This document shows, one piece after another, positions 20,907-36,477 of a stretch of 64,000 nt of DNA (positions are counted from its first letter, which is position 1; the number at the start of each line of letters is the position of its first letter). The position numbers and the translations under genes were made by a program. Below the pieces are notes generated by a model. It worked only from the letters and a program-made list of their open reading frames with translations. It did not search any database and was not told the origin of the DNA. Origin of the DNA: an uncultured Prevotellaceae bacterium (GTDB lineage Bacteria; Bacteroidota; Bacteroidia; Bacteroidales; Bacteroidaceae); assembly GCA_902763615.1 (NCBI GenBank), contig CACWSX010000009.1, positions 34,515-98,514 of the forward strand. The letters are read 5' to 3'.

Positions 20907-20970
20907 AATAGTGCAAATTACACGCTGCATTTGTCGAATGACTTTTGTTTTTTTTGTACATTTGCAGAGT

Positions 20971-21036
20971 GTTTTTCATGGTATTAGATTATTAAGGTTA
21001 AAAGGAAAATAGGTTATCGTGAGATAACCTACTTTC
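20971..21036 (+). ncRNA. Candidate short Bacteroidales sRNA (possibly FopS-like multicopy family)
   Basis: TACATTTG promoter at 20957-20964, body TTTTCATGGTATTAGATTATTAAGGTTAAAA, terminator TAGGTTATC-GTGA-GATAACCTA (21010-21031). Confidence 0.65.
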
Positions 21037-21253
21037 AACTCCGACGAAAATTATTTTTTAGTAGTCGGAGATGAAAAGGGAGCTTGGGAAAGTTCCCTTT
21101 TCTGTTTTTCGCCAACAGAGATCGAGACAATCCGAACCGTCCTTTACGAGATATGCCTGCCCGATCTCGAATTCGACGGCTACGAGGACGTTCTTCCTGT
21201 CGCCGAAATTTTGTGATACTAAATTTTTGTTTCATTCAAAATTTCTCATTTCT

Positions 21254-21655
21254 CTATTCATCTATTCATTTTGTATCTTATTCATTTATATTCAGAGAGT
21301 TATCTAATGAATAGTACTCTTATACTATTCATTAACTATTCATTATTTATCATTCAGATATCATCTTTTATTGCAAGAAACGTAATTAAACCTCTAAAGA
21401 CTAGTTTGTTACACTACAGTAACTCAATTCGTAACATTTTGTAACAAGCCTTGTTACAAAGTGTCACCGCCATTGTGACAAAGTGTTACCATTGTTTTTA
21501 CAATAGCGTGACACTTATTTTTCTTGAATCAGTAATTGCAGATTGATAACAAAAATCGCTAAATAATGAATAGTCGCATCACTATTCATAGCCACTATTC
21601 ATTATGTAACCATTTGATTATCTTAATGTTATACGGAATAATGAATAGTGAATAG
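21254..21655. repeat. Array of CTATTCA/TGAATAG boxes around approximately 22-bp palindromic units, with an IHF site
   Basis: About ten boxes at 21254, 21262, 21306, 21325, 21336, 21565, 21582, 21595, 21640, 21649; perfect palindrome TTTGTAACAAG-C-CTTGTTACAAA at 21438-21460; IHF consensus at 21607-21619 (minus). Confidence 0.75.
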
Positions 21656-21920
21656 TGTTTTCATTATTTCTAGTCAATAATTTCATTTTGATAAATTGGC
21701 TCGCAATAAGGCCAGAGCAAAGGGCTTGAGCCAAACGGTCATTCAACATTTAACGAGATCCTTCGTTCCCTTCGAATAGTCAATGATGACAACAACATCA
21801 CCATCTTCAGTCTCATTGGTCGTAAGGATCTGATGGCCGATTCCTTCTAATTCAAGGGATAGAATTCACTTTTCCCCCTGAAAATTTGGAACTTTCGAAT
21901 AATGTTCGTATCTTTGTAAC

Positions 21921-22050
21921 GTGAAAGGAGAAACCGAGTAGAGCCACGATGTGTGGAACGGTGGTATCTGTGTGATGATGAGCAATTCGACCTTGCCGCT
22001 TGGTTTCCTTCACTCAAATACAGAGCTGGTCACGTGTGGCCAGCTTTTTC
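21921..22050 (+). ncRNA. Candidate structured sRNA of about 130 nt
   Basis: TTTG (21885-21888) plus TATCTTTG (21909-21916) promoter; 5' GTGAAAGGAGAAACCGAG pairs with CTTGGTTTCCTTCAC (21999-22013); terminator AGCTGGTCAC-GT-GTGGCCAGCT-TTTT (22024-22049); no useful ORF. Confidence 0.65.
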
Positions 22051-22078
22051 TATTTTGATTCTATATACTTTATGATTT

Positions 22079-22136
22079 CCACAAGCCTTGCGGAAGGTTA
22101 GGGAGCTTGCTTAATCAGAAAAATATCGTATCTTTG
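22079..22136 (+). promoter_or_regulatory. Palindromic operator copy 1 plus sigma-A promoter
   Basis: CCACAAG-C-CTTGCGG at 22079-22093; TATCTTTG at 22129-22136. Confidence 0.7.
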
Positions 22137-22162
22137 CACCAACTAATTAAGAGAAAGAAGAT

Positions 22163-23173
22163 ATGATATACAAAACTCCAAAGCGGAATACCCCTATTGC
22201 CACGCTCATTAAGAACTATGTCAACAAGAAGAGTGGCAAAGTTGCTGAATCTAGGAAAGAGATTCAAAGACGATTCGAGCATCTCGATTGGAAAGATCAG
22301 AAGAAAATACTTATAGCATCCCTTGATTCTTGTAAGTCAGACAGACAATGGGCCTATTCGAAACTTTACAATCATTGGGACAAGTCTTTTGAGGAAAAGG
22401 TGAGAAAGTTGTGGGATGAACTCCACGAGCCGATGTGCGCTTGGCCTATTATCCGTTTCTTCCCCATTTCCTATGTGAAGGAGAATATGACATCGTTCAC
22501 TGGCGAAAGAGACTTCTATTTTATTAGCCTTCGTCTGGCAGAAGATCCGAACTATATCATTGATAAGAGCAAATTAAGGACTGTCGATTACTTGGCTGTG
22601 CTATATTATTCAGGCAGAACGCTGTCTGACGATGATGCCATTGATATGTTGTTTGAGATTGTCCATGATTTGTGCATCTCTGGCTTCTCGATATATGAGA
22701 CACATATGGATTACGATGAAAGCCTATTTGACCTTTCAAAACATCTAAGCATTAATCGTGCGAAAAACTATCTATTTAGGATGGACCATTATAAAGCGGT
22801 AGATCTTTTTGACGAATGGAATCGGAAAGTGCGCAACAATATCAGGGATAGTCATGAATATGCCGTCTTGAAAGAATGGGGATTCCCTCGCTATGATTTA
22901 TTTGAACAAGGCATATTGATTGTTAGGAAATACGCCTATACGGCGCTTGATAACAAATATAAACACCCTTCAGATATGATTGTGACAGAAATGTTTTCAT
23001 TAGCAGATTTAATATTTCGCCAACCTCCTGAAGATGTGCCGTCAAGAATCACTAATGATATGCTTCCATCCGATCCGTCGTTTTTGGAGAAAATAAAGCA
23101 AACCAATGTTGAAGTCAAGAAGTTGGTGGACGACTTTGAATTGGAACTATTTGATGGAGATGTTCCGTTCTAG
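22163..23173 (+). CDS. Hypothetical protein; N-terminal domain shared with the 30850 protein, acidic DVPF tail
   Basis: 336-aa ORF with its own promoter; no family recognised. Confidence 0.8.
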   Translation: MIYKTPKRNTPIATLIKNYVNKKSGKVAESRKEIQRRFEHLDWKDQKKILIASLDSCKSDRQWAYSKLYNHWDKSFEEKVRKLWDELHEPMCAWPIIRFFPISYVKENMTSFTGERDFYFISLRLAEDPNYIIDKSKLRTVDYLAVLYYSGRTLSDDDAIDMLFEIVHDLCISGFSIYETHMDYDESLFDLSKHLSINRAKNYLFRMDHYKAVDLFDEWNRKVRNNIRDSHEYAVLKEWGFPRYDLFEQGILIVRKYAYTALDNKYKHPSDMIVTEMFSLADLIFRQPPEDVPSRITNDMLPSDPSFLEKIKQTNVEVKKLVDDFELELFDGDVPF

Positions 23174-23186
23174 GCGTATTTTTCAG

Positions 23187-23256
23187 TCCACAAGTCTTGT
23201 GGAATTACTTTTTTTGCTCCAAATCCTTTTTCTGTCAGAAAAAAGTTGTATCTTTG
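23187..23256 (+). promoter_or_regulatory. Palindromic operator copy 2 plus sigma-A promoter
   Basis: TCCACAAG-T-CTTGTGGA at 23187-23203; TATCTTTG at 23249-23256. Confidence 0.72.
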
Positions 23257-23293
23257 CAAAATCAAGAGCTAGAATGCTAAAGCAATCGTATTT

Positions 23294-24361
23294 ATGGCAA
23301 CATGGGCAAAAGAGAATTTACCTAGAGAAAATGGCGAAATGGTCCCTATGCAGGTTCCAATAATTGTTTCTGCAAGTAGGAGTACAGATATCCCTGCCTT
23401 CTATGCTGATTGGTTTTTCCATCGGCTGAAGGTCGGCTATTCTGCATGGACTAATCCATTTAACGGTGTTAAAGGTTATGTTTCATATAAGAATACTCGC
23501 TTTATCGTATTCTGGTCAAAAGATCCCTCTCCACTTATTGCTCATTTAGATGAGTTGAGAGAAAGGAAGATCGGATTCTATATTCAATACACCTTAAATG
23601 ATTATGTCAAAGAAGGTCTGGAAAAGGGAGTGAAACCTTTGGAATATCGAATCGACACTTTCAAACGATTGGTTGATAAGTTAGGCGTAGGAAGTGTTAT
23701 CTGGCGATTTGACCCTCTAATGCTCACTGATACGATTGATATCGACACGCTTCTCGGAAAGATAGACAATATTGGCAATCAGTTAAAAGGCTATACTGAG
23801 AAACTCGTCTTTAGCTATGCAGACATTGCCTTATACAGAAAGGTGAAGTCGAATCTCGAGAAGAACGGCATTAATAGCAGAGACTGGACTGAAGATGAAA
23901 TGCATGAGTTTGCAAAGGGATTGGCCAAACTAAACCAATCTTGGGGTTATACCTTGGCAACCTGTGGCGAGAAGATAGATCTTAAGCCCTATGGCGTTGA
24001 GCATAACCATTGTGTTGATGACGCCTTGATTATTAGGCTCGCGTATCACGATAAAGTCCTTATGGACTTCCTAAAAGTCAAGATACACCCAATGCCAAGC
24101 CTTTCTATCTTTGGAGATACGGAACCACTACCGCCTGATGCAATTATTCTTCCCAATAATACATATGTAACCCGTGGCGACAATAGAGATAAAGGTCAAA
24201 GAGAGTTCTGCGGATGCATGAAGAGTAAAGACATAGGTGAATATAATACGTGTGTTCACCTATGTGAATATTGCTATGCGAACACAAGTAAACAGGCTGC
24301 TGCACTCAATTATAATAGTCATAAAAACAATTCAAGGAGTGAAACAATAACGGGAAAGTAA
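23294..24361 (+). CDS. DUF1848 domain protein (radical-SAM-like, C-terminal CxxxCxxC)
   Basis: IVSASRSTDIPAFYADWF, FWSK, IWRFDP, TCGE, CGC..SKDIGEYNTCVHLCEYCYA. Confidence 0.9.
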   Translation: MATWAKENLPRENGEMVPMQVPIIVSASRSTDIPAFYADWFFHRLKVGYSAWTNPFNGVKGYVSYKNTRFIVFWSKDPSPLIAHLDELRERKIGFYIQYTLNDYVKEGLEKGVKPLEYRIDTFKRLVDKLGVGSVIWRFDPLMLTDTIDIDTLLGKIDNIGNQLKGYTEKLVFSYADIALYRKVKSNLEKNGINSRDWTEDEMHEFAKGLAKLNQSWGYTLATCGEKIDLKPYGVEHNHCVDDALIIRLAYHDKVLMDFLKVKIHPMPSLSIFGDTEPLPPDAIILPNNTYVTRGDNRDKGQREFCGCMKSKDIGEYNTCVHLCEYCYANTSKQAAALNYNSHKNNSRSETITGK

Positions 24362-24365
24362 TAAT

Positions 24366-27300
24366 TTGAGGGACTATATGTGCTACGTAACCGATATACA
24401 GAAAATAAGTGACCTGACTATAAATGATATCATCAAGGTCTCTTTACGTTATGTACCGGAGTCATTCAAGTCATGTCCTTGGGCGTATAGGGATAGTGAG
24501 GGACGAACGTTGGAACATGGTACGGCTGTTCTTGAAACAGAAGAACAGTGTTGTGCATACATGGCAGCTTATGGGCCGATGCATCAACACAAGTTAATTC
24601 GTGCATTAGATGAGGATGAATTCCCCTACGAAGCTTTGAACAATGGCGTAGAGATTTATGATTGGGGATGCGGTCAGGGTATTGGTACTGTCGCTATCAT
24701 TGAAAAACTACGGCAGTTTGGCTGGTTGTCAAAGCTGAAGAAAGTCACCTTAGAGGAACCTTCTAATGTGGCAAGGCAACGAGCAGTATTACATGTCAGA
24801 CAGGCATTAGGGGGGCAAAATATTGAGATTGCTGACGTTTCCTATTATCTTCCTTCAGATTATGGCGACAACAGCAACTCTATTACGAAAATTGATGTTC
24901 GTGAGCCTTGTGCCATACATATCTTCTCGAATATTCTGGATATTGAAGCTGTCAGCCTGAGGGGTGTTTCAAAGATGATAACCTCTTCTGGTGCTCAGCA
25001 TATAGCCCTGTGTATAGGTCCGGCAAATCTAAATGAAAGCCGAATCAATACCTTTAGCTATTATTTCAAAAAGGAAGGCCTATGGGTGTTTACAGAATTC
25101 CGCGATACGAATTTTGGTCATCATCCCAATGGAAGGGCATATGGTTGCCTGATTAAGAGTTTTACATATAGCCTGACACGTAACAGTAATATTCTGCATA
25201 AATACAGCTACTATGCTCCTGTTCAGCTATTTGCGTCCTATTCAGATGTCAATTTGCAGGGGTCTTCATTACAAAGTGCTTTTGAGATTCTAGCTCCATT
25301 TGATATGACGGCACATAAAAATCTTTGCCCAGTCTATGCCCTTGTTAGCAATCTTATCTCACGTGGTTGTCCAACATTGGCCAGTCCAAAGGTATTGGAT
25401 GCAATCAGTTCGAAAGATAAAGCAAAGAGCCTTAATGCCGTTGCACGTATTCAGAAAACCTTCATAGAGGCAATGATATCTGATCGCATAGATTTGAAGA
25501 AGGACACTTTGGATATTCTTGTGATTGAAGATGACACGTCAGTGGCAAAGATAGCCATTAATGATTTTGTTGAGTTATACCATCATATCGTTGCTATGAC
25601 GCAGGATTATTCGGACTTGACCCTTCCCCCAATTAACATATATGGTAAGAGGGAGGCTAAGCCCCAGACAACTTATGATGCTATTATTGATGTGTCTATC
25701 GACCAGTTATGTAATCCTGAAGAAGTGGTATTCTCTGATTATAAGGCCAACAACGACTGCTTTTTTGTTGTGCGCTCTTCAAAGTCTGTATATGCAGAAA
25801 GATTTCTCTATACAACTGAGAGAATCAAGTATAAGCCTCTCGTTGAAAGGGACACACAAGGAAATTATCACAATATTGAGGATGTTTGTGGCCACCTGCG
25901 CTATTTTCTGAACCTGATTTTCAGAAAAGAAGATTTCAGACCTGGCCAGCTACCCATCCTTAGTCGGGCATTACAGCTAAAGAGTGTCATCGGATTGTTG
26001 CCAACAGGTGGTGGTAAATCTCTTACCTATCAGCTAGCAGCCATGTTACAGCCTAGTGTTACTTTGGTTGTTGATCCGTTGAAGGGATTGATGAAAGATC
26101 AATATGATGGATTGCAAAAAACAGGTATAGACTGTATATCATTTATAAACGGTGATATTGTTGGTGAAGAAAGAACAAAGCGAGAACAGGCATTAACAGG
26201 TTCACAGACACAAATTATGTTTTTGTCACCTGAACGACTTAGCATTCACCGTTTCAGAGATGTTCTACGCTCTATGCGAGAATCCGATGTTTATTTTGCA
26301 TACGGTGTGATAGATGAAGTTCATTGCGTCTCTGAATGGGGACATGATTTCCGTCTAGCGTATCTCCATCTGGGTAGAAACTTATATAATTATGTCCTCC
26401 CCAAAGAAGTAGAAGGTGAAGATAATCATATCTCTTTATTTGGATTAACCGCAACTGCATCGTTTGACGTTCTCGCTGATGTAGAGAGAGAATTGTCGGG
26501 TAATAATTCGTATTCCTTGGAAGAAGATGCTACGGTAAGATATGAAAATACCAATCGACTAGAGTTACAGTATTATGTCTATCATGTAGACACGTCAACA
26601 GCTACAACGTCATGGGATGTCGGTGAAATTAAAGAAAATAGGCTTCTTGATGTAATTAATGATTCTACAGAGAAGTTAAAAGAGATCCAAGGGGGGTACG
26701 GTGTTGAAGAGATTAAAAAACGATTTCTTGAAAGGGAAAATATTTCTAATAAACAAAAGATAGTAGAAGTCGATTCTAATGATTTATCGGTTGAAGTAAA
26801 AAACGAATGGTATTTAAATAACAAAACAAATGCTTCTGGTATTATCTTCTGCCCTCGTGCAGGAAAAGATAAAAAAAATGAAAAAGAAAAGCCTGTAATA
26901 CTAAGTGTTCCATCTGTAGCAGATATCCTGGAAAGGGAAGGAGTTAATCTCATTTCTACATATAAAGGAGGAGATGATACAAGATGTCAGGATGATTTCC
27001 TTCAAGATCGTACAAAACTGATGGTCGCAACGAAAGCATTTGGTATGGGTATTGACAAGTCCAATGTTCGACTTACAATTCATTTAAATCATCCTTGCTC
27101 TTTAGAGTCATTCGTACAGGAAGCTGGACGCGCAGGGCGAGATGGGAAAATGGCATTGGCAACTATCATGTATGCAGACAAGCAATTTCAAAATCAAAAT
27201 GTTAAAACTAGACTGATGGAATGGCATTCTGCAGATTATGAAGTGAATAAATTTTTCTATGATACCAATTTCTTAGGAGAGAGTTTCGAATTGTTTGTAA

Positions 27301-28511
27301 TGCAATTGCTTCTATCATGTTTGCCAATGCGATTTACCAATGAAGAATTCATGGGAATTGAACATGAAACATCTGGAAACGCTCAAGGTATATTTCAAAC
27401 TTTACAAAAGTGTATAAAAAAATATCCAAACAAGCGCCTTACATATTATGTATCATACCATGAAGATGAACATTTGTTGGAGCATTATAATCAACAATTA
27501 AGGCAGGCATTGTTACCTATATTTGAGACCCCTTCAATGCGAAGAATTAAGTTTAACAACCCCAAATACGGTTATGGTTATGCTCAATACAAAGAAGCTA
27601 TTCAAAAAGCAATATATAGGATGTGTGTAATTGGCCTTATAGATGATTTTACCGAAGATTATTGGAAAGAAGAATTTCGTATTGTGACAATATGCCAAGA
27701 TGAATCGCACTATTATGATTACCTCCGTCAATACTATCGGAAATATTACTCCGAAGATAGAGTTGATGTAATGATTAATGAAGTTAAGCAGATGGCGGTC
27801 AATGACGGGGTCATTATGGCATGCTTAAAGCACCTTACTTCTTTTATATATAGGAGTATCGCGGACAAGAGAGCTAGGGGTATCTTGGATATGGAGCAAT
27901 TTTGTAATATGGCTATCAGCTCAGGCAAGGACTGGAAAGAAACGAATGAAGAGCTGAAGGACTTTATTTATTACTATTTCAACTCGAAATATGCAAGAGA
28001 AGGCTTCATCACATACGATTCAAGTGCGCACAGGGAAATACCATTCTCACTAAAAGATGACACCAATTACGATATTCACAACGAAAGTGAAATATCAAAT
28101 TTCAATCTTGTGAAAAAATATATGAGAGTGGTTGATCCTGATATCGTCAATAATGATGCTCAAGTAGATAATATCAAACACTTGCAAGGTGCAGTACGCC
28201 TCATCAGACGTGCTATTGCAGAAATGAACCCTGTTCTGAACCTCTTAAATATATTCTGCATTTTATTCCTTGGTCAACAAGATAATGAGATGCTGGAGCA
28301 AGAACTATATGATGACTACAAAGCAGTTATGAGATTATATGCGAAACAAGGGAAACTTGGACTTCTCAATGAATATACGAATTTGTTATTGCAGCATGCA
28401 GCCATACTTCCAGAAGGCAAGGGATATATAGAGAAAATACAGCTCGCCATTCAACTAGAAGAGCATATTGCAGAAATTAATAGAATTAATCAAATATACA
28501 AAGAAATATGA
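24366..28511 (+). CDS. Large RecQ-like SF2 helicase with N-terminal class I SAM-methyltransferase-like domain
   Basis: MTase-like YMAAYG, DWGCGQG, FSNILD; helicase motifs LPTGGGKS, DEVHCVSEWGHDFR, LTATA, ATKAFGMGIDK, QEAGRAGRDG. Start may be ATG 24378. Confidence 0.88.
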   Translation: MRDYMCYVTDIQKISDLTINDIIKVSLRYVPESFKSCPWAYRDSEGRTLEHGTAVLETEEQCCAYMAAYGPMHQHKLIRALDEDEFPYEALNNGVEIYDWGCGQGIGTVAIIEKLRQFGWLSKLKKVTLEEPSNVARQRAVLHVRQALGGQNIEIADVSYYLPSDYGDNSNSITKIDVREPCAIHIFSNILDIEAVSLRGVSKMITSSGAQHIALCIGPANLNESRINTFSYYFKKEGLWVFTEFRDTNFGHHPNGRAYGCLIKSFTYSLTRNSNILHKYSYYAPVQLFASYSDVNLQGSSLQSAFEILAPFDMTAHKNLCPVYALVSNLISRGCPTLASPKVLDAISSKDKAKSLNAVARIQKTFIEAMISDRIDLKKDTLDILVIEDDTSVAKIAINDFVELYHHIVAMTQDYSDLTLPPINIYGKREAKPQTTYDAIIDVSIDQLCNPEEVVFSDYKANNDCFFVVRSSKSVYAERFLYTTERIKYKPLVERDTQGNYHNIEDVCGHLRYFLNLIFRKEDFRPGQLPILSRALQLKSVIGLLPTGGGKSLTYQLAAMLQPSVTLVVDPLKGLMKDQYDGLQKTGIDCISFINGDIVGEERTKREQALTGSQTQIMFLSPERLSIHRFRDVLRSMRESDVYFAYGVIDEVHCVSEWGHDFRLAYLHLGRNLYNYVLPKEVEGEDNHISLFGLTATASFDVLADVERELSGNNSYSLEEDATVRYENTNRLELQYYVYHVDTSTATTSWDVGEIKENRLLDVINDSTEKLKEIQGGYGVEEIKKRFLERENISNKQKIVEVDSNDLSVEVKNEWYLNNKTNASGIIFCPRAGKDKKNEKEKPVILSVPSVADILEREGVNLISTYKGGDDTRCQDDFLQDRTKLMVATKAFGMGIDKSNVRLTIHLNHPCSLESFVQEAGRAGRDGKMALATIMYADKQFQNQNVKTRLMEWHSADYEVNKFFYDTNFLGESFELFVMQLLLSCLPMRFTNEEFMGIEHETSGNAQGIFQTLQKCIKKYPNKRLTYYVSYHEDEHLLEHYNQQLRQALLPIFETPSMRRIKFNNPKYGYGYAQYKEAIQKAIYRMCVIGLIDDFTEDYWKEEFRIVTICQDESHYYDYLRQYYRKYYSEDRVDVMINEVKQMAVNDGVIMACLKHLTSFIYRSIADKRARGILDMEQFCNMAISSGKDWKETNEELKDFIYYYFNSKYAREGFITYDSSAHREIPFSLKDDTNYDIHNESEISNFNLVKKYMRVVDPDIVNNDAQVDNIKHLQGAVRLIRRAIAEMNPVLNLLNIFCILFLGQQDNEMLEQELYDDYKAVMRLYAKQGKLGLLNEYTNLLLQHAAILPEGKGYIEKIQLAIQLEEHIAEINRINQIYKEI

Positions 28512-28906
28512 TTGACGAGAAAATCAACAACTCACTCAGAGAGTTAGAGCAAGGACTAAAAAGCATGGAGTCCGCACGTAAACAAGTGGAAAAGACTGTC
28601 AATTCCTATGATGGTCTTAATTCAACTACCGCTGAGTATGTCAATAAACTCGGCACAATTACGACCAAGATTCAGGATCTTGTTGATGCCATAGGCAAGG
28701 ACTATTCCCTGAAAGTAAGGGCGTTTGAGAAAGACAGGGAAACGGTCATCAACGCATCAACTGCTGCAACTGAGAAACTTTCCAATGCCACAGAAGAGTT
28801 TAAAGACTCATTGGTTGAGATCCAAACAAAACTGAAATACAGCTTAATCGTCAATGCTGTATCGCTCGTTGCTGTTGCAACAATTTTATTTTTTCTTTTG
28901 AAATGA
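28508..28906 (+). CDS. Coiled-coil protein with C-terminal membrane anchor
   Basis: ATGA overlap with the helicase stop; helical heptad pattern; hydrophobic tail LIVNAVSLVAVATILFFLLK. Confidence 0.8.
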   Translation: MIDEKINNSLRELEQGLKSMESARKQVEKTVNSYDGLNSTTAEYVNKLGTITTKIQDLVDAIGKDYSLKVRAFEKDRETVINASTAATEKLSNATEEFKDSLVEIQTKLKYSLIVNAVSLVAVATILFFLLK

Positions 28907-29091
28907 CAAGAAACTCTTCTTGTTACGATATTATGCGTATATGGAATCATCATAAATGCAGGGAAGCAGGCCCCAATCATAGTGTAGGTATACTCTATCC
29001 CTACTTAATGAATATGCCAAGGGTACGGGAAAAGTAATGATGTTTATTTTTCTTGTGATCAGTTTTGAATTATAGTTTATAATTGATAAGG

Positions 29092-30375
29092 ATGAAGAAA
29101 TTGTTATTCATATTAGGAGTGATTTTTTGCTTCATAAAGCCGTTGTACAGCTTGTTAGGTAAGAATGAATACTTGGATATTGCCATAACTGTATCCATTT
29201 TTGTTATTGTAGTGATGATAATCAATGAGATGATGAAACCTAGAGTTGTAGAAGAAGATGTGCAACCATTCATGCAAGAAAATGAACAGTCGTTGTGGGA
29301 CGATAATTCGTTCTTAGTAGAGCTCAACCAGAATGTAGAATTGTCACCTGACGAAATGGTTTATGTTGCGAATGAAGAGGATAAAATTCTGACAAATCTT
29401 TTGGAGAATCATCCAGAGGCTCTTGAGGCGTGGGCACAAACGATAGGTTTTCAAATAATATATCTGCCGATGCTAATCAAACGTCTCAAAGAGAAACGAG
29501 CGTTTCAATATCACGCCCCTTATCTGAATGATGCAGAGGTGGGAAAAATAGACATCTGTAATGATTTCCTTTTACAGTACTTTTCAAATCCAGAAGATAA
29601 GAACCGAGTTAAGCAAGGTTTTATTCGAGTGGATAATGTTCATAGGACTGGCAATGACAGCGACAAACCTGTCGTTCGTTTCTATCCGTTGTCTGCTAAA
29701 GGAAGCGAGTCATTACCAGATCAACTAGATAAAATCAGTAAACAGATAGTGAATGAGCGAAGTCTGCAGGACTTCCACATTGAAAACACAAGCGTTAATA
29801 GTGAAAGAACCCAAATAGGTTTTGATTATGAACCCAAAGAGAATTCCGTTCTTCAACAAAATAATGATGATACAAACGACTTGATAGAAGAGGTAAGGGA
29901 GCGGATAGCCCTATTACGGCGGAGGGGAATTTCTCAATTCATCCTTGAGCAGTTGATTCATCCTGATGACAGGCTGAGTAGGTTGGTGATAACGAAAGAT
30001 TATAGGTTGTTGCTGCCGGACTACAACGATATGGAAATCAAGATGGAGCCGCTGGTGAAGGCTGTATATCTACTTTTCTTGAAACATCCGGAGGGAATCC
30101 TGTTTAAGTGTCTGCCTGATTATCGTGAGGAGTTGGCTCAGATTTATGTCAAGCTGAAGCCTTTTGGTATGAGTGACAGGGTGATTCAGAGCATTGAGGA
30201 TGTTACCAATCCGCTGCTGAACTCTATCAATGAGAAGTGTGCCAGGATTCGTGGGGCATTCGTTGGTCAGTTTGATGACCACATGGCCAGACATTATTAT
30301 ATCGATGGCTTACGTGGCGAGGCCAAGAAGATTGACTTACCACGAAACTTGGTCGTGTGGGAGGATACAAAATAA
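29092..30375 (+). CDS. Membrane-anchored protein with a C-terminal domain that is probably a winged-helix DNA-binding domain
   Basis: Two N-terminal hydrophobic helices; the C-terminal beta-beta-helix-helix-recognition helix-wing pattern (EIKMEPLVKAVYLLFLKHPEGI...SINEKCARIRGAF...YYIDG.RGE.KKI) resembles OmpR-type effector domains. Confidence 0.65.
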   Translation: MKKLLFILGVIFCFIKPLYSLLGKNEYLDIAITVSIFVIVVMIINEMMKPRVVEEDVQPFMQENEQSLWDDNSFLVELNQNVELSPDEMVYVANEEDKILTNLLENHPEALEAWAQTIGFQIIYLPMLIKRLKEKRAFQYHAPYLNDAEVGKIDICNDFLLQYFSNPEDKNRVKQGFIRVDNVHRTGNDSDKPVVRFYPLSAKGSESLPDQLDKISKQIVNERSLQDFHIENTSVNSERTQIGFDYEPKENSVLQQNNDDTNDLIEEVRERIALLRRRGISQFILEQLIHPDDRLSRLVITKDYRLLLPDYNDMEIKMEPLVKAVYLLFLKHPEGILFKCLPDYREELAQIYVKLKPFGMSDRVIQSIEDVTNPLLNSINEKCARIRGAFVGQFDDHMARHYYIDGLRGEAKKIDLPRNLVVWEDTK

Positions 30376-30680
30376 TGAAAATATCGTACATGAGGCAAAT
30401 GTTCAGTTTCCTTAATGGAATGGTGGACAAAAAAGAAATTGGTGCGGCATGCAGTATCAGTTGTGTAGTATGGGCCTTTATCTTATTATTATTTGTTCTG
30501 CCACCTTTAATCAAATATAATACTAATACATCATTTGTTGGTGGTTTCTTTTTGACATTATTGACAATTGTTTTTTGGTGTATAACAATAACTATTACTT
30601 TTGGTGTTGTAGGGGGAATTCTAGGATTTCTTATATCATTGTTTAAAAATGAGATTAAAACATTGTATATCGTTATCTAA
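30375..30680 (+). CDS. Small membrane protein
   Basis: TAATG coupling to the upstream gene; two to three hydrophobic segments. Confidence 0.65.
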   Translation: MKISYMRQMFSFLNGMVDKKEIGAACSISCVVWAFILLLFVLPPLIKYNTNTSFVGGFFLTLLTIVFWCITITITFGVVGGILGFLISLFKNEIKTLYIVI

Positions 30681-30766
30681 AGTTTAATTTCTGACATAGC
30701 ATTCTTTTATGGGTTGGCTTTTCTGTCAACGATAATACCCGACTATTAAGTTTAAAAATGAATAAT

Positions 30767-30823
30767 CCACAAGCCTTGTGGGGCGAAATTGCTTGGTTGC
30801 AAAGAGGGAAAATCCTAATTTTG
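30767..30823 (+). promoter_or_regulatory. Palindromic operator copy 3 plus sigma-A promoter
   Basis: CCACAAG-C-CTTGTGG at 30767-30781; TAATTTTG at 30816-30823. Confidence 0.72.
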
Positions 30824-30849
30824 CAACCAAGTTTTTAATAGTTGTGAAT

Positions 30850-31266
30850 ATGACAGATTACGAGTACATTTTAAATCAGGCAAAAAAGTTCTATTACACC
30901 AAATGGGACGATGGGAAGTTGCGGAAGTGTGTGGATATGCTGCATGCACTTGAACACGATGAACTAGTGGCGTTGTACCATTGCAAATGGATTAAGAAGG
31001 TTATGCATGAAGCAATCTTTAATATCTTGTATATGGACAAAATTGGGGAACGGGAAGAGACCATTAAAGAAATGTCGACAAATGAGCTTATCAATGAGTT
31101 TGAAGACAGAAGCAGTGGAAACGTATCGCTTATCAGAGAAGAACTAAGACACAGATACAAAGAGGATCTTGGAGATGACAGAATTAAGATTGCTGCAGTC
31201 TTTAGGAATGGTACAAAGGGTGATCAGCAATGGATTCAATTGCAGATGCGCAGAGATTGTAAGTAA
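30850..31266 (+). CDS. Hypothetical protein; C-terminal domain shared with the 22163 protein
   Basis: First ATG after the promoter (MTDYEY...); 138 aa. Confidence 0.75.
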   Translation: MTDYEYILNQAKKFYYTKWDDGKLRKCVDMLHALEHDELVALYHCKWIKKVMHEAIFNILYMDKIGEREETIKEMSTNELINEFEDRSSGNVSLIREELRHRYKEDLGDDRIKIAAVFRNGTKGDQQWIQLQMRRDCK

Positions 31267-31312
31267 TCCTCGATACAAAGACAACTATAACACATTAATT
31301 GAGAATAACAAG

Positions 31313-32113
31313 ATGGGACAGGTAAAAATGTTAGGGGCACTGGTAGGCGATATTATCGGCTCAGTGTATGAGTTTCGTAACACGAAGTCTACTGATTTCG
31401 AATTGTTTTGTGGTGCAAGTGATTTCACGGATGATTCCGTGATGACACTGGCTGTGGCGAAATGGCTGCTGGAGGATGAAGCACATACCATACATTATTT
31501 AATATATTGTATGCAGGAACTTGGCGACCATTATCCTTATGCCGGGTATGGAGAAAGGTTTTCTGGATGGCTCTGTGAGGACAATCCACAACCTTATAAC
31601 AGCTGGGGTAATGGTGCTGGCATGCGGGTTAGTCCTGTGGGACTGTTTGCCAAGACCCTCGATGAAGCTTTGGCTCTGGCTGCTATTACGGCATCGGTGA
31701 GTCATAATCATCCAGAGGGTGTGAAGGGCGCACAGGCAATTGCTACGAGTGTATTTCTTTGCAAGCAAGGAAAATCGAAACAGGAAATCAAAGAATTTGT
31801 AGAAAAGACATTTGGATATAATCTGAATCGAACGATTGACGAGATCCGTCCAAGATACGGATTTGACGTATCATGCCAGGGCAGTGCACCTGAAGCAATA
31901 ATAGCTTTTTTAGAGGGGAATACGTTCGAAGAGGTAATTCGCCTGGCGATTTCCCTTGGAGGTGATTCTGATACCATTGGTGCTATGGCTGGTGCTATCG
32001 CTGCATGTATGTATCCCATTCCTCACGACATTGCAGAACGCTGTGACAGGATTCTGACTGATGACCTAAGAGATATCAAAGATAATTTCATTAGGATGAT
32101 AGAGGGTAGATAG
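31313..32113 (+). CDS. ADP-ribosylglycohydrolase (DraG/ARH family)
   Basis: GALVGDIIGS, FTDDS, SWGNGAGMR, HNHPEG, GGDSDTIGAMAG. Confidence 0.93.
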   Translation: MGQVKMLGALVGDIIGSVYEFRNTKSTDFELFCGASDFTDDSVMTLAVAKWLLEDEAHTIHYLIYCMQELGDHYPYAGYGERFSGWLCEDNPQPYNSWGNGAGMRVSPVGLFAKTLDEALALAAITASVSHNHPEGVKGAQAIATSVFLCKQGKSKQEIKEFVEKTFGYNLNRTIDEIRPRYGFDVSCQGSAPEAIIAFLEGNTFEEVIRLAISLGGDSDTIGAMAGAIAACMYPIPHDIAERCDRILTDDLRDIKDNFIRMIEGR

Positions 32114-32132
32114 ACTGTCTAGAGGATTGAAG

Positions 32133-32606
32133 ATGGATATTAAGGTACTGAGAAAAGTGAGGGAATTCGCCATAAAGCATGCGCGAAAAGATGAGTTTTC
32201 TATACACGGGATAGATCATTGGGATAGAGTGGCTAATTATGGATTGAGCGTTGCTTCTCCTGAGGCAGATTTGGATGTAGTGTTGTGTTTTGCTTACCTT
32301 CACGATGTTGAAAGACAAGATGATGGCTATGATGAAGAGCATGGTCCAAGAGCTGCTGCATTAGTTGATCAGATCAGGGATTCAGTCTTAGCTTTTCTTG
32401 ATGATAAGCAGATAGGTTTGCTAAAAGAGGCATGCGCTCTACATACTATATGCCACAAAACTGGTAATCCTACCATTGATGCATGTTTCGATTCAGATCG
32501 TTTGGATTTATCAAGAGTTGGTATTACTCCTGATCCAGATAAAATGGCTACAAAGAAAGGAGCAGAAAAAGCAAGGGCATTTAATGATTACAGGAAAAGG
32601 GATTAG
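32133..32606 (+). CDS. HD-domain metal-dependent phosphohydrolase
   Basis: HGIDHWDRV, AYLHD, EEHG, CALH, DSDRLDL. Confidence 0.88.
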   Translation: MDIKVLRKVREFAIKHARKDEFSIHGIDHWDRVANYGLSVASPEADLDVVLCFAYLHDVERQDDGYDEEHGPRAAALVDQIRDSVLAFLDDKQIGLLKEACALHTICHKTGNPTIDACFDSDRLDLSRVGITPDPDKMATKKGAEKARAFNDYRKRD

Positions 32607-32607
32607 G

Positions 32608-33774
32608 ATGCAAAGAAGAAAAATTAAACAGGTGATGATAATAATCTTATTTGCCATCACACTTCTCATTGTGGTAAAGGTTTTATGGGTAGGATGCGCC
32701 ACTGGCGGGCTTGGATCTTTTGATAGTGAGAAGAAAGGGATCATCTTAAGAGCGAACTACCTGACGTCAAAGGTGGCGACTTCACCACAAGGGTTGCTTG
32801 ATGAAATGACGAATGGCATTGGGGCGCAGTTTCAGGGAGAGTGGGCATTATACTCCTGTTCTATGACTACTGCTGCATTGGCAAATATCGCCATCCTTTA
32901 TCCTCAGAATAAAGATCTGTCCATCAAATATATTGGGCAAATTATTGATATCGCCCTGTCGCCAGAGATTCGTGAGTATGATGCTTATAGTTGGATGGAG
33001 GATCCGATGGAGGGTATCTATGGCGATATGAGTCACATTTCTTATTATAGTCATATCGCATGGATGATTAGCAGATATAAGCAGATAGGTGGAGACAATA
33101 GGTATGACGATATCTATCATTCGTTATGTAAGGCTATGAATCGCAGGATTCGTCAGAGTCCATATTTGAATCTGCCAACGTATCCTGATGGTTATATCTA
33201 TATCCCTGATATGCTGGTGGCGATTGTGGCTCTGCATAATTATTCGTGCCAATATGATGGGAAATACTCAACGACAGTGAATATGTGGATTGAAAAAGCT
33301 AAGACGGACTGGATAGACAAAGAAACGGGTTTGGTTGCATCGATTTTGTTAGAAGATAATGGGCAAATAGTAATGCCTATTAGAGGTTCGTATTCTGCCT
33401 TGAATTGTTATTATCTGTCGCAGATAGATTCAGAGTTCGCCAAGGAACAGTATGATTGTTTGATAAAGCACTTTAAACAAAGCGTACCCATTGATGGCAT
33501 TAAGGAATACCATAATACGACTTGTTTGATGGGATTCGATATAGATGCTGGTCCGATTATCTTTAATCTAAGCCCGTCTGGAACAGCCTTTGCCATTGGT
33601 TGTGCGACGAGTCTTGATGATATGGCGTATAGGCGGCAATTGTTGAAAACTGCGGAAATAGCAGGTAGTACAGTCACGTGGTTTGGCAAGAGCCATTATT
33701 TGTTGGCAAACTGGGCTTTGGTGGGTGAGGCCATTACCCTTGCCATGAGAAAACTCGAATGTGTTATTAAATGA
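32608..33774 (+). CDS. Membrane-anchored hypothetical protein, possible alpha/alpha-barrel (linalool dehydratase-like)
   Basis: N-terminal TM helix; GEWALY, TYP...Y.PD, RGSYSAL, DIDAGP, LVGEAI.LAM; the fold assignment is from memory only. Confidence 0.55.
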   Translation: MQRRKIKQVMIIILFAITLLIVVKVLWVGCATGGLGSFDSEKKGIILRANYLTSKVATSPQGLLDEMTNGIGAQFQGEWALYSCSMTTAALANIAILYPQNKDLSIKYIGQIIDIALSPEIREYDAYSWMEDPMEGIYGDMSHISYYSHIAWMISRYKQIGGDNRYDDIYHSLCKAMNRRIRQSPYLNLPTYPDGYIYIPDMLVAIVALHNYSCQYDGKYSTTVNMWIEKAKTDWIDKETGLVASILLEDNGQIVMPIRGSYSALNCYYLSQIDSEFAKEQYDCLIKHFKQSVPIDGIKEYHNTTCLMGFDIDAGPIIFNLSPSGTAFAIGCATSLDDMAYRRQLLKTAEIAGSTVTWFGKSHYLLANWALVGEAITLAMRKLECVIK

Positions 33775-33781
33775 TGAGAAT

Positions 33782-34900
33782 ATGAAGAAGATTTTGTTTG
33801 GTGTGATTATTGTGATTGTGGCGTTGAGTTCGTGTTTTTCTCATGAGCAGAAGAAACCAGACAATCGGTGGTGGGTGCCTGAGAAGAAAGATGTGATCTC
33901 ATGGGAGAAACTGGATACGATTGTCGTGGGCGACGGGCTCTTTAAACTGGAGTATCCTGACTGCTTTGAACTGAGTGAAGAGTCTGATGACGGCGGTGTG
34001 TTGGTGACTTATAAGGAAATATCTGGGCTTTTTCTGACGGCGAACGCGGAAAAGAATCCATATCACTGGAATGCTGATACTTTGGCGGATCTTATTGTTA
34101 AAGAGAGAAAGGCTGAGGATAGAGACTCCATCATCATGCAGGACATGCACGATGGATATTTCTACTTGAAGGGAATCATGGGGGCCAACGGATACTGCTT
34201 CTACGAACAATATGTTGTTTTCCATGATTATATTTTCACGCTCACTTTAGTGTATCCGTCGAATATAGAGACCAAGATGGAGAATCTTTTCCGCCTGGTA
34301 CATGATTGGCATCCTGAAACCAATGTGGTGCTTGCTACAATGAAGTCGGATGATATGAAGGAGCGTATGTCTGTCCTCAAAAAGCGGGGTGGGATGCATA
34401 ACTATCGTGAGTTTTATATCGAGGAAAGTGACAATGGGTATCATTTTATGGTTTATGACTCATGTCATCATAATCGCCAGGAGATAGTCTTTGGTGCGGA
34501 TGATTATTTGAACGGAGGGGTTCCTGGTATGTATGCATTTGTAAGTCTGGATAAGAAATATGTCTATGTGGTAGGTGATATTCTGGCTAATAGTACAGGA
34601 TGGGTGTCCACCTTTATCATCTATCAGGTGAACACGGAAACGCTCAAGGCTAAGTTGGTGAATGCTGTTGCAGCCATCAAACTGGAAAAGACGGGATTTA
34701 CTGTCGCCTCCATGACTCGATGCGTCACTCCAGAAGCAGAATTCTCTTATCAGATGGACTTCGCCTTTGAGGATATTACTTATGGTTTTAATGGGAAGAT
34801 TAAGCGTAAGAGTAAGGAATATGCCTCAAAGGAAATTAAGGAACGTTATGGGAAACTGTGCAATCTAAATGGATTGGGTTTAAAAAGAGAAGATATTTGA
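33782..34900 (+). CDS. Hypothetical lipoprotein
   Basis: MKKILFGVIIVIVALSSC lipobox; 372 aa. Confidence 0.75.
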   Translation: MKKILFGVIIVIVALSSCFSHEQKKPDNRWWVPEKKDVISWEKLDTIVVGDGLFKLEYPDCFELSEESDDGGVLVTYKEISGLFLTANAEKNPYHWNADTLADLIVKERKAEDRDSIIMQDMHDGYFYLKGIMGANGYCFYEQYVVFHDYIFTLTLVYPSNIETKMENLFRLVHDWHPETNVVLATMKSDDMKERMSVLKKRGGMHNYREFYIEESDNGYHFMVYDSCHHNRQEIVFGADDYLNGGVPGMYAFVSLDKKYVYVVGDILANSTGWVSTFIIYQVNTETLKAKLVNAVAAIKLEKTGFTVASMTRCVTPEAEFSYQMDFAFEDITYGFNGKIKRKSKEYASKEIKERYGKLCNLNGLGLKREDI

Positions 34901-34954
34901 TTCGTCAGAAGGATTATTTCACCATTGCCAAGGATGTGTTGTGGTCTGAAAATG

Positions 34955-34991
34955 TTTGGTGGCAAAGATATGTCAAATCTTTGCCACCAAA
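34955..34991. terminator. 15-bp inverted repeat between the island and proS (probable terminator)
   Basis: TTTGGTGGCAAAGAT-N7-ATCTTTGCCACCAAA between convergent genes. Confidence 0.7.
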
Positions 34992-34995
34992 TAGT

Positions 34996-36477
34996 TTAAT
35001 AGCTTCTGGCGATGATGACGCGGGCCTTTGAGGGCTTACCGCTCACCATATCCAAACCAGGCGTCTGCTCCACACCGAAGGGCACGCAGCGGATGGTGGC
35101 CTGTGTCTCTTCCTTGATCTTGGCCTCGGTCTCGGCTGTGCCGTCCCAGTGGCAGAGGAAGAATCCTCCATCCTTCACACGCTCCTTGAACTCCTCGTAG
35201 TTGTCGCACTCGTAGATGCGGCTGTCGCGATAGGCCTTGGCCTTCTCGAAGATGTTCTTCTGGATGTCGTCCAGCAGCTGTGCCACATAGTCGGCGATGC
35301 CGGCCAGCGGGCGGGTATCCTTCTCCAATGTGTCACGACGCATCACCTCGATGGTGCCGTTCTCCAGGTCGCGGGCACCAAGCACGAGACGTACGGGTAC
35401 ACCCTTCAGCTCGTAGTCGGCAAACTTGAAGCCTGGACGCTTGTTGTCAGCATCGTCGAACTTCACGGTGATGCCCTTCTGGCGTAGCTGCTCGATGATA
35501 GGCTGCACCTCCTTGTTTACGAGTTCCATCTGCTCGGGCTTGGTGGCGATGGGGATAATGACCACCTGAATAGGAGCAAGACGTGGAGGCAGCACCAGTC
35601 CGTTGTCGTCTGAATGCGTCATGATGAGGGCACCGATCAGTCGTGTGCTCACACCCCATGAGGTAGCCCAAACATATTCGGGTTTGTTGTCCTTGTTCAG
35701 ATAGGTCACGTCGAAAGCCTTGGCGAAGTTCTGTCCGAGGAAGTGTGATGTTCCTGACTGCAGGGCCTTGCCGTCCTGCATCATGGCCTCGATGGTATAG
35801 GTGTCGAGGGCACCTGCAAAACGCTCGGTCTCGCTCTTTACTCCCTGCACTACAGGCACTGCCATCCACTCTTCTGCAAACTTGGCATACACCTTCAGCA
35901 TCTTCTTGGCTTCCTCTTCAGCCTCTTCGCGGGTGGCATGGGCTGTGTGGCCCTCCTGCCACAGGAATTCCGAGGTACGGAGGAACGGACGTGTACGCAT
36001 CTCCCAGCGCATCACATTACACCACTGGTTGCACATCAGGGGCAGGTCGCGCCACGACTGGATCCAGTTCTTATACGTGTTCCAGATAATCGTCTCTGAA
36101 GTAGGACGGATGATGAGTTCCTCTTCCAGCTTGGCTGCGGGATCTACCACTACGCCGCTCTTGTCCTCAGTTGCCTTCAGACGGTAGTGGGTCACTACGG
36201 CGCACTCCTTGGCGAAACCCTCCACATGCTCGGCCTCGCGGCTGAGGAATGATTTTGGAATTAGCAAGGGGAAATAAGCATTCTGCGCACCCGTCTCCTT
36301 GAACATCTTATCTAGTTGCTGCTGCATCTTCTCCCAGATGGCGTAGCCATAGGGCTTGATGACCATACATCCGCGAACGGCAGACTGCTCCGCCATATCG
36401 GCCTTGACCACCAGATCATTGTACCATTGGCTGTAATTTTCAGCCCTTTTCGTTAAATCTTTTAATTCTTTTGCCAT
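34996..36477 (-). CDS. proS: Proline--tRNA ligase (archaeal/eukaryote type)
   Basis: [37 protein letters not shown]-terminal ARSY. Confidence 0.97.

Follow-up and report, generated by a model that had tools for sequence, protein, structure and literature searches.

The DNA considered here is a window of 64,000 nucleotides from an uncultured Prevotellaceae bacterium (assembly GCA_902763615.1, contig CACWSX010000009.1), and it contains a low-GC island in which one short palindrome stands upstream of three promoters. This raises the question of whether a single factor reads the palindrome and switches the genes behind it together, and whether that factor is encoded in the island, as an earlier reading of the sequence alone (the original prediction) had proposed for the product of the gene starting at position 29092. 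We find that the palindrome is likely bound by dimers of the 29092-type protein family, which likely co-regulate the island cargo, the family's own genes and a second ftsZ gene (ftsZ2); on the evidence of sequence comparisons and structure models, we hold this to be probable, though well short of secure. Site and family are best read as the predicted regulon of a new OmpR-fold one-component family with a shared site and swappable sensors. Both are apparently undescribed in the accessible literature searched, where we found no description of the motif or the regulon.

Exact copies of CCACAAG-N-CTTGYGG lie at 22079-22093, 23188-23202 and 30767-30781, and the TAnnTTTG boxes that follow them start at 22129, 23249 and 30816, giving centre-to-box distances of 43, 54 and 42 bp, all as originally predicted. 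TAnnTTTG (-7) together with TTTG (-33) is the promoter consensus given in PMC7366714. With up to one mismatch, the window has three sites (six strand matches) against 0.03 expected, and none of 100 shuffles equalled this; at three mismatches the count is at background (12 versus 8.2). Four TAnnTTTG boxes occur in the intergenic plus strand of the island (21909, 22129, 23249 and 30816), three of them with the site, and all four window matches to a relaxed core, RCAAGnCTTGY, are inside the island. The wider motif around the three palindromes is YCRCAAG-S-CTTGYGR with an invariant core, CAAG-S-CTTG. In two other metagenome runs, the allele of the 23188 site has an altered centre and spacer and unchanged arms. 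The fourth relaxed-core match, a longer perfect palindrome at 21438-21460 (11-bp arms, core CAAG-C-CTTG), has no promoter at the class distances defined below; its surroundings are an AT-rich repeat region (~21200-21670) with 73% similarity to part of contig C41.

Across loci, the site-to-box distances are 35, 42/43 or 52-55 bp, hereafter the 35-, 42- and 54-classes, and one site often serves divergent promoters, 42 bp one way and 54 bp the other. The exact motif is present in 28 of 400 genomes of the genus, compared with 5 for a reversed control. A GTDB scan that allowed 31 site-promoter distances returned 118 loci of ~140 stretches estimated. Here 67 of the 82 unique Bacteroidota-labelled pairs stand at 42, 43, 53 or 54 bp, that is, at four of the allowed distances, against 10 of 44 pairs in other taxa, some of which resemble misbinned Prevotella DNA; the positional bias towards TAnnTTTG that the original prediction had suggested testing is therefore present. 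Clustered at 60% identity, the spacers form 36 groups in the 42-class and 31 in the 54-class, with a median pair identity of 0.38-0.39, although 79 of 136 members of the 42-class belong to a single cluster, its largest; this diversity indicates that the fixed spacing is not one copied unit. Among 80 loci with wide flanks, 29 of the 33 with a 42/43-bp site have the C-terminal domain of 29092 within 7 kb (one pair overlaps).

Starting from the protein leads to the same site. We picked 78 metagenome loci by the domain alone, from the best-scoring 80 of 562 confirmed, a set biased to close relatives. Their top de novo spaced palindrome is CACAAG-N-CTTGTG, found in 41 of the 78 loci (the next unrelated one in 9), and 52 have a site with at most two mismatches, compared with 0-1 for four permuted controls. 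The distances peak at 42 bp (49 cases), with four to five cases each at 43, 53, 54 and 35 bp, and the core does not vary in any of the 64 promoter-linked sites, even with four mismatches allowed. A site lies within 40 bp after the stop codon in 37 of 85 domain genes, mostly at 11 bp, and 26 of the 29 loci of at least 8 kb have one. Loci with an ftsZ2-linked paralogue have the site in 18 of 20 cases, 14 of them at 34-35 bp and one at 43 bp; in three ftsZ2-linked loci it lies between divergent genes, 42 bp toward ftsZ2 and 54 bp toward the regulator.

At the level of genomes, 16 of 21 that bear the domain have the site in class geometry, compared with 4 of 35 that do not (p 1.4e-6, scored by hand on genomes whose relatedness makes them non-independent). 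The anticipated co-occurrence of the motif with the 29092 C-terminal domain is thus borne out by the site-first, protein-first and genome-level counts, and the site is conserved, positionally biased and co-distributed with a candidate factor, as a transcription-factor regulon requires. Within the genus, the family is present in 45 of 80 sampled genomes, a sample partly chosen by motif; beyond it, the domain was found in 6 of 120 genomes of other families, and in one of these the stop codon of the member is followed directly by a variant site that keeps the core.

The candidate factor combines two N-terminal hydrophobic helices (residues 2-47, hydropathy peaks 2.3-2.4), an unclassified alpha/beta domain (74-235), a helical linker (259-289) and a predicted winged helix (298-423, encoded at ~29983-30360); most close homologues have a DUF6804 membrane domain. 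With a predicted membrane segment and a predicted DNA-binding domain in one chain, it would count as a transmembrane transcription regulator in the broad sense. The AF2 model of the C-terminal domain (pLDDT 91) matches BaeR with Z 8.8-9.3 (best rmsd 2.6, 97 residues aligned), and in a search of 48,161 chains the top 21 rows are OmpR/PhoB-type. The winged helix named in the original prediction is accordingly upheld as a predicted OmpR/PhoB-type domain at fold level, with a sheet, a three-helix bundle and a beta wing. Sequence searches gave no counterpart: the domain has no Pfam or NCBIfam match and no PDB sequence match below E 0.35, Trans_reg_C is absent among the 20 families matched by 37 domains (Pfam, E<=1), and PADLOC and PHROGs gave no usable family for the regulator. 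Neither Pfam nor NCBIfam detected a receiver domain; within whole-model searches, residues 74-235 gave no receiver match and no fold match, and the ESM Atlas gave nothing usable for them. The short family members, of ~180-200 aa, have no room for a receiver domain.

The family is large, with 3,803 near-length domain homologues and 2,770 clusters at 50% identity, and it is rare in viral contigs (three loci), so a phage origin is not supported. The predicted recognition helix, N(S/A)INEKC(A/S)RI, is found in 149 of 184 domains, as NSINEKCARI in 115 and NAINEKCSRI in 26. The N-termini are exchanged among DUF6804, A1S_2505 with DUF1810 and other domains, or are absent. Because the recognition helix is almost identical in all members, the long island-encoded forms (membrane, A1S_2505 with DUF1810, other N-termini) would be plug-in sensors feeding one shared regulon, with the short, sensorless form encoded with ftsZ2 acting beside them. 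The helix variants (CARI versus CSRI) do not covary strictly with the site arms (CAC versus CGC), and CSRI island members have either arm; cross-binding is therefore likely, and we claim no paralogue-specific code. Members with the A1S_2505 and DUF1810 N-terminus occur at loci L007 and L019, and stand-alone A1S_2505-like genes are also among the targets.

In the usual layout, a 54-class site is followed by genes, the regulator, a 42-class site 11 bp past its stop codon, and cargo. The window fits this order, with a 54-class site, DUF1848, helicase, membrane protein, regulator, an extra membrane gene, a 42-class site and cargo. In the full set of loci, part of which was selected by motif, a site follows the stop codon within 60 bp in 67 of 151 island-type genes (62 of these sites are 42-class), and 9 of the 12 sites within 400 bp upstream of island-type regulator genes are 54-class. 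The original prediction had remarked that the region upstream of 29092 lacks the site. The gap does lack it, but it also lacks TAnnTTTG, which leads us to infer read-through from 23249: judged from the sequence, that promoter likely drives the DUF1848, helicase and membrane protein genes and the regulator gene as well, likely placing the latter in the operon behind the 23188 site, with autoregulation likely. A weak hairpin in the same gap could attenuate the read-through.

If the -7 box begins near -11, the three classes of site would be centred at about -46, -53 and -65, none overlapping the box. Promoters of the 54-class have a T/A tract after the site and seldom a -33 TTTG (5 of 63, against 398 of 1133 in the background), features that together suggest dependence on an activator. 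A winged-helix dimer would sit head-to-head on the two half-sites, and we lean towards activation by recruitment of RNA polymerase at the 54-class promoters, where the A/T tract lies at the place that the tail of the alpha subunit would contact. CRP-type class I and class II activation also places one palindrome at discrete distances, the far class without a good upstream promoter element. Discrete distances are common to both systems; fold and sequence differ, and the Crp/BT4338 motif is unrelated (PMC3878776). A scan for Escherichia coli sigma70 promoters was uninformative for this DNA. Of the 42-class promoters, 55 of 138 lie in a strong hairpin, which may also terminate the upstream operon, and the inverted repeat around the third promoter of the window may do so too.

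Several results weigh against this reading of site and family. Five of the 21 domain-bearing genomes have no site in class geometry, and co-inheritance of a gene with its adjacent site inflates the co-occurrence. Of the wide-flank loci labelled Bacteroidota, the 11 whose only site is of the 52-54 kind all lack the domain within 7 kb, although at one of them (L143) a domain gene lies elsewhere on the contig, and 22 of 39 island-type genes with at least 5 kb of upstream room have no co-oriented upstream site. Of the six members from distant families, five, several of them with changed helices, lack a CAAG-core site in geometry. On the structural side, the best Foldseek match has E 0.048, with none at E<=0.001, Z values of 8-9 are only moderately above the level of unrelated models, and OmpR-type domains usually bind direct repeats, unlike the 1-bp-spaced inverted repeat here. 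Finally, -33 TTTG is commoner in the 42-class promoters (76 of 138) than in the background, an excess compatible with repression and activation alike.

The same site and family could thus serve mainly for repression, the palindrome being an operator upstream of strong promoters that is relieved on a signal. The good -33 and -7 elements of the 42-class promoters and the 35-class sites abutting the -33 element would suit such an operator, and TetR regulators repress immunity islands in Bacteroides fragilis (PMC13080023). However, no distance class puts the site over the -7 box or the start region, and -33 TTTG is scarce in the 54-class. The structural neighbours PhoB, CadC, ToxR and TcpP are mostly activators. 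Overall, we regard repression as unlikely, but as the most credible of the alternatives. A second possibility is that a different chromosomal factor (DnaA, a LexA-like SOS repressor or a Crp-like protein) binds the site and that the winged-helix gene is merely a target. Such genes are indeed often downstream of a site, the loci with only a 54-class site have no such gene nearby, and the left arm resembles a DnaA box. A DnaA-box pair was rejected, as among 201 sites the full box, TT(A/T)TNCACA, matches the left half in only 19 and the right half in only 7. A Bacteroidetes SOS operator was rejected as well, YCRCAAG-S-CTTGYGR being unlike GGA-N5-TCC or CTAA-N5-TTAG (PMC8565304), and the Crp/BT4338 motif differs too (PMC3878776). 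A universal factor would also leave unexplained why so few genomes without the domain have the site in geometry, and why eight of the nine promoter-coupled sites in the genome of the window lie in the islands and ftsZ2 region that encode the family; we give this explanation very little credence.

We consider it just as improbable that the palindrome serves for recombination or as a cassette junction, in the manner of integrons or rAID, importing gene blocks with their own promoter. It is true that sites lie at module borders, that cargo is shuffled between the two islands of this genome, that three recent duplications begin 10-11 nt left of a site centre, including a 113-bp repeat at ftsZ2, and that 10 of 27 left-only-similar pairs lose similarity within 9 nt of the centre. 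Yet the island borders (21108 and 34995) do not coincide with palindromes, no site-to-site joint is found among the 15 joints listed of 59, most site pairs within a locus share only the site, and a fixed spacing to divergent promoters would not be needed. Neither island contig has a tyrosine recombinase; the 87%-complete genome has no resolvase, and its only PF00589 genes are two, on contigs C22 and C46. A weak two-sequence profile found a recombinase in 1 of 63 loci of at least 10 kb, and a 1-bp spacer fits neither recombinase class. The least credible proposal, to our minds close to negligible, is an RNA hairpin acting as the intrinsic terminator of the upstream gene. Its appeal comes from the sites 11 bp after a stop codon, the T-rich run after 41 of 68 54-class sites and a terminator scan that flags 23187-23203. 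But the core is invariant in sequence and not merely complementary, and at pair +/-5 of 144 42-class sites A.C mismatches (23) are as common as G.U (16), which makes an RNA stem unlikely. A T run follows only 32 of the 144 42-class sites, and some sites stand between two genes that point away from each other, a place in which no transcript ends. Some 54-class sites may act secondarily as terminators.

Binding by the 29092-type family remains our preferred reading, and the nearest known regulators show how the family differs. ToxR, TcpP and CadC (PMC10269533) have in common with it a predicted OmpR/PhoB winged helix (Z 7.9-8.0 for CadC, 6.6-6.9 for ToxR), a membrane anchor in many members, no detected receiver domain and a site upstream of the core promoter. 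In 29092, however, the order is reversed, with N-terminal membrane helices, a C-terminal winged helix and almost no periplasmic part, and assignment to the ToxR/CadC-like class, which is defined by an N-terminal winged helix, one TM helix and a C-terminal sensor in the periplasm, was rejected on this ground (residues 2-47 precede 298-423). In addition, an extra helix expands the loop before the recognition helix, many family members have no membrane segment, the domain of the window has no Pfam match at E<=1, and the site is a 1-bp-spaced inverted repeat. The response regulators of the OmpR/PhoB group (BaeR, SaeR, GlnR, PhoB, WalR/YycF) are the best structural matches of the C-terminal domain; in contrast to them, the family has no detected receiver domain, no consistent kinase partner among its neighbours and N-termini swapped among unrelated domains or absent.

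As islands, the closest comparison is with the acquired interbacterial defense (AID) islands of B. fragilis (PMC13080023) and rAID-1 (bioRxiv 10.1101/471110), which are likewise low-GC, co-oriented Bacteroidales arrays with repeated intergenic motifs and with paralogous regulators, encoded on separate islands, for one gene set. Control of the AID islands by TetR is, by analogy, the nearest regulatory counterpart. Here, however, the regulator is a predicted winged helix and not TetR, ftsZ2 is a constant target, and the cargo is known from sequence, not as immunity to the type VI secretion system. Of the features that define rAID-1, the island has co-directional low-GC genes (<=41%) and a repeated intergenic motif, and it has no 5' XerD-like recombinase. 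For an unannotated regulator family, the results name a candidate factor, define a precise site and distinguish three promoter geometries. Activation geometry in Bacteroidales is poorly mapped, and the natural 35-, 42- and 54-bp classes, in which one site sometimes serves divergent promoters, lend themselves to direct tests. Island genes that would otherwise be anonymous, and ftsZ2, are marked by the site as one response.

The genome as a whole (3.46 Mb, 87% complete) shows that the candidate regulon reaches beyond the three island promoters named in the original prediction. Seven sites have at most one mismatch: three in the window, three in a sister island on contig C24 and one without a promoter. 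The relaxed core occurs 19 times, 10 of them not coupled to a promoter and nine coupled, at 35, 35, 42, 42, 42, 43, 54, 53/43 and 42/55 bp, with divergent promoters in the final two cases. Much of the cargo recurs, reordered, in the sister island, which also encodes a second 29092 homologue that ends just before a site; a third, short paralogue follows ftsZ2 at the island edge. Both carry the same recognition helix as 29092, which can no longer be regarded as the only candidate DNA-binding factor. A degenerate site with divergent promoters (42/55) at C6 1136-1152 lies outside both main islands, on a contig without a family gene, and is a candidate trans target.

The canonical ftsZ is in the division cluster on contig C4. 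The ftsZ2 promoter has a variant site, TCGCAAG-C-CTTGCGA, at 35 bp, and the encoded protein (C24 30797-32047) keeps the GGGTGTG motif, but its T7 loop reads KSDFRD instead of NLDFND and its C-terminal tail differs; from these sequence changes, it may have altered GTPase activity. The accessible text of PMC9871819 makes no mention of a second Bacteroidota ftsZ. A 7.8-kb, high-GC HlyD/peptidase-ABC transporter block (C24 22853-30830) lies between 113-bp direct repeats of 97% identity, each comprising a site, a promoter and the first eight ftsZ2 codons. A HigAB-like toxin-antitoxin pair, assigned by eye (C24 19458-20129, minus strand), is reversed between two site-promoter units, and its promoter is 65 bp from a site.

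Counted over 193 site-promoter units, the genes that most often follow are those of the 30850 family, the regulators and ftsZ2, together with genes for an unknown membrane protein, DnaB-like helicases, Ser/Thr kinases that have LRR or Sel1 repeats, ADP-ribosylglycohydrolases and small WYL proteins; TPR, TerB and DUF1016 proteins are also among the targets. By its sequence, this cargo is of conflict or stress type, and from the cargo alone we are evenly balanced on whether envelope or toxin/phage damage is the trigger. PADLOC found no complete system among 10 window proteins, only a reverse transcriptase-associated DUF1848 model and partial helicase matches (DpdF/PsyrT), all single-gene. An FtsZ-ADP-ribosylating toxin with hydrolase immunity has reportedly been described, and a spare FtsZ and hydrolases could be imagined to counter FtsZ-modifying toxins. 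Similarity of the island hydrolase to Tri1 is distant (E 1e-10, far under the cut-off), and no locus among the 29 protein-first ones of at least 8 kb has both ftsZ2 and the hydrolase (three loci each). As a broad and rather doubtful conjecture, one DNA code (CAAG-S-CTTG) and one reading module might let islands import sensor heads (membrane, ADP-ribose-linked and others) and tagged cargo, so that any sensor would switch all tagged genes, including the spare FtsZ and ADP-ribose-removing enzymes, and defend division against FtsZ-targeting toxins or phage proteins.

The features of the island are listed in Table 1. Its GC content is 0.39, compared with 0.50 for the rest, and it is flanked on the left by the terminator of a FopS small RNA and on the right by the 3' end of an oppositely transcribed open reading frame (34996-36477, labelled prolyl-tRNA synthetase by eye). 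Contigs of two other metagenome runs have empty-site joints, 21107->34996 and 21109->34996, from which we conclude that the island spans ~21108-34995 and is absent from some strains. Runs that hold it are labelled as ruminant or unspecified gut metagenomes, and the labels of related loci are mostly Prevotella-group.

Table 1. Features of the island and of its palindromic sites, in order of position in the window
Feature	Position	Strand	Basis
Low-GC accessory island, all genes on the plus strand	21108..34995	+	empty-site joints, GC
Site 1, 17-bp palindrome, 42/43-bp class	22078..22094	.	
-7 element TATCTTTG, 43 bp from site-1 centre	22129..22136	+	
Unknown protein, 336 aa	22163..23173	+	
Site 2, perfect 17-bp palindrome, 54-bp class, T tract after	23187..23203	.	
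-7 element TATCTTTG, 54 bp from site-2 centre	23249..23256	+	
DUF1848 protein	23294..24361	+	PF08902 E 2.5e-89
RecQ-type helicase, 1381 aa, long N-terminal extension	24366..28511	+	PF00270, PF00271; TIGR00614 just under cut-off
Small coiled-coil protein, C-terminal hydrophobic segment	28508..28906	+	weak coiled-coil Pfam matches only
Candidate regulator, 427 aa	29092..30375	+	hydropathy, predicted fold
Membrane protein, 101 aa, between regulator stop and site 3	30375..30680	+	
Site 3, 42-bp class	30766..30782	.	
Inverted repeat spanning -33 region and -7 element TAATTTTG (30816-30823), then T run	30791..30832	+	RNA fold -23.4 kcal/mol
Unknown helical protein, 138 aa	30850..31266	+	no family
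ADP-ribosylglycohydrolase	31313..32113	+	PF03747 E 9e-35
HD-motif protein (by eye)	32133..32606	+	no Pfam match; phrog_3921 E 7e-5
Membrane-anchored protein, weakly like linalool dehydratase	32608..33774	+	PF18566 E 0.001, below cut-off
Predicted lipoprotein, unknown	33782..34900	+	no family above cut-off
Decayed site-plus-promoter unit (right half-site and hairpin left) at right island border	34925..34992	.	

Of the cargo labels given originally, DUF1848, RecQ-type helicase and ADP-ribosylglycohydrolase are supported by Pfam, whereas no Pfam match at E<=0.1 backs the methyltransferase and HD labels, which were read from motifs by eye. The 22163 protein has no Pfam, NCBIfam, PHROG or PADLOC match; a weak similarity (31% over 49 aa, E 6e-5) links its N-terminus to the C-terminal half of the 30850 protein. 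The latter has no Pfam family, and its ESM Atlas matches reach only <=0.80. Its family is the commonest first gene behind 42-class sites, with such a site within 260 bp upstream of 29 of 46 homologues. In run X9, the contig departs from the window sequence after 30362, and a joint 30920->32123 shows the ADP-ribosylglycohydrolase gene swapped for other DNA in one strain. The decayed unit at the right border is an 80% match to a site-promoter unit of C24; its hairpin (-25.7 kcal/mol) is likely the terminator of the oppositely transcribed gene. In alleles from other runs, 13 nt are inserted close to where the last two island genes meet (33750-33790).

Two RNA features lie at the left end of the island. 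An unannotated 136-nt structured RNA candidate (21909-22052, plus strand) has a TATCTTTG promoter of its own (21909) and a terminator hairpin of 11 bp; its z-score is -2.2, it has no Rfam match, and parts of it recur on several other contigs. The flanking small RNA (20969-21108, plus strand) belongs to the FopS family (RF04319, 62 bits, above the gathering score; match 20969-21039), and the island is inserted directly after its terminator.

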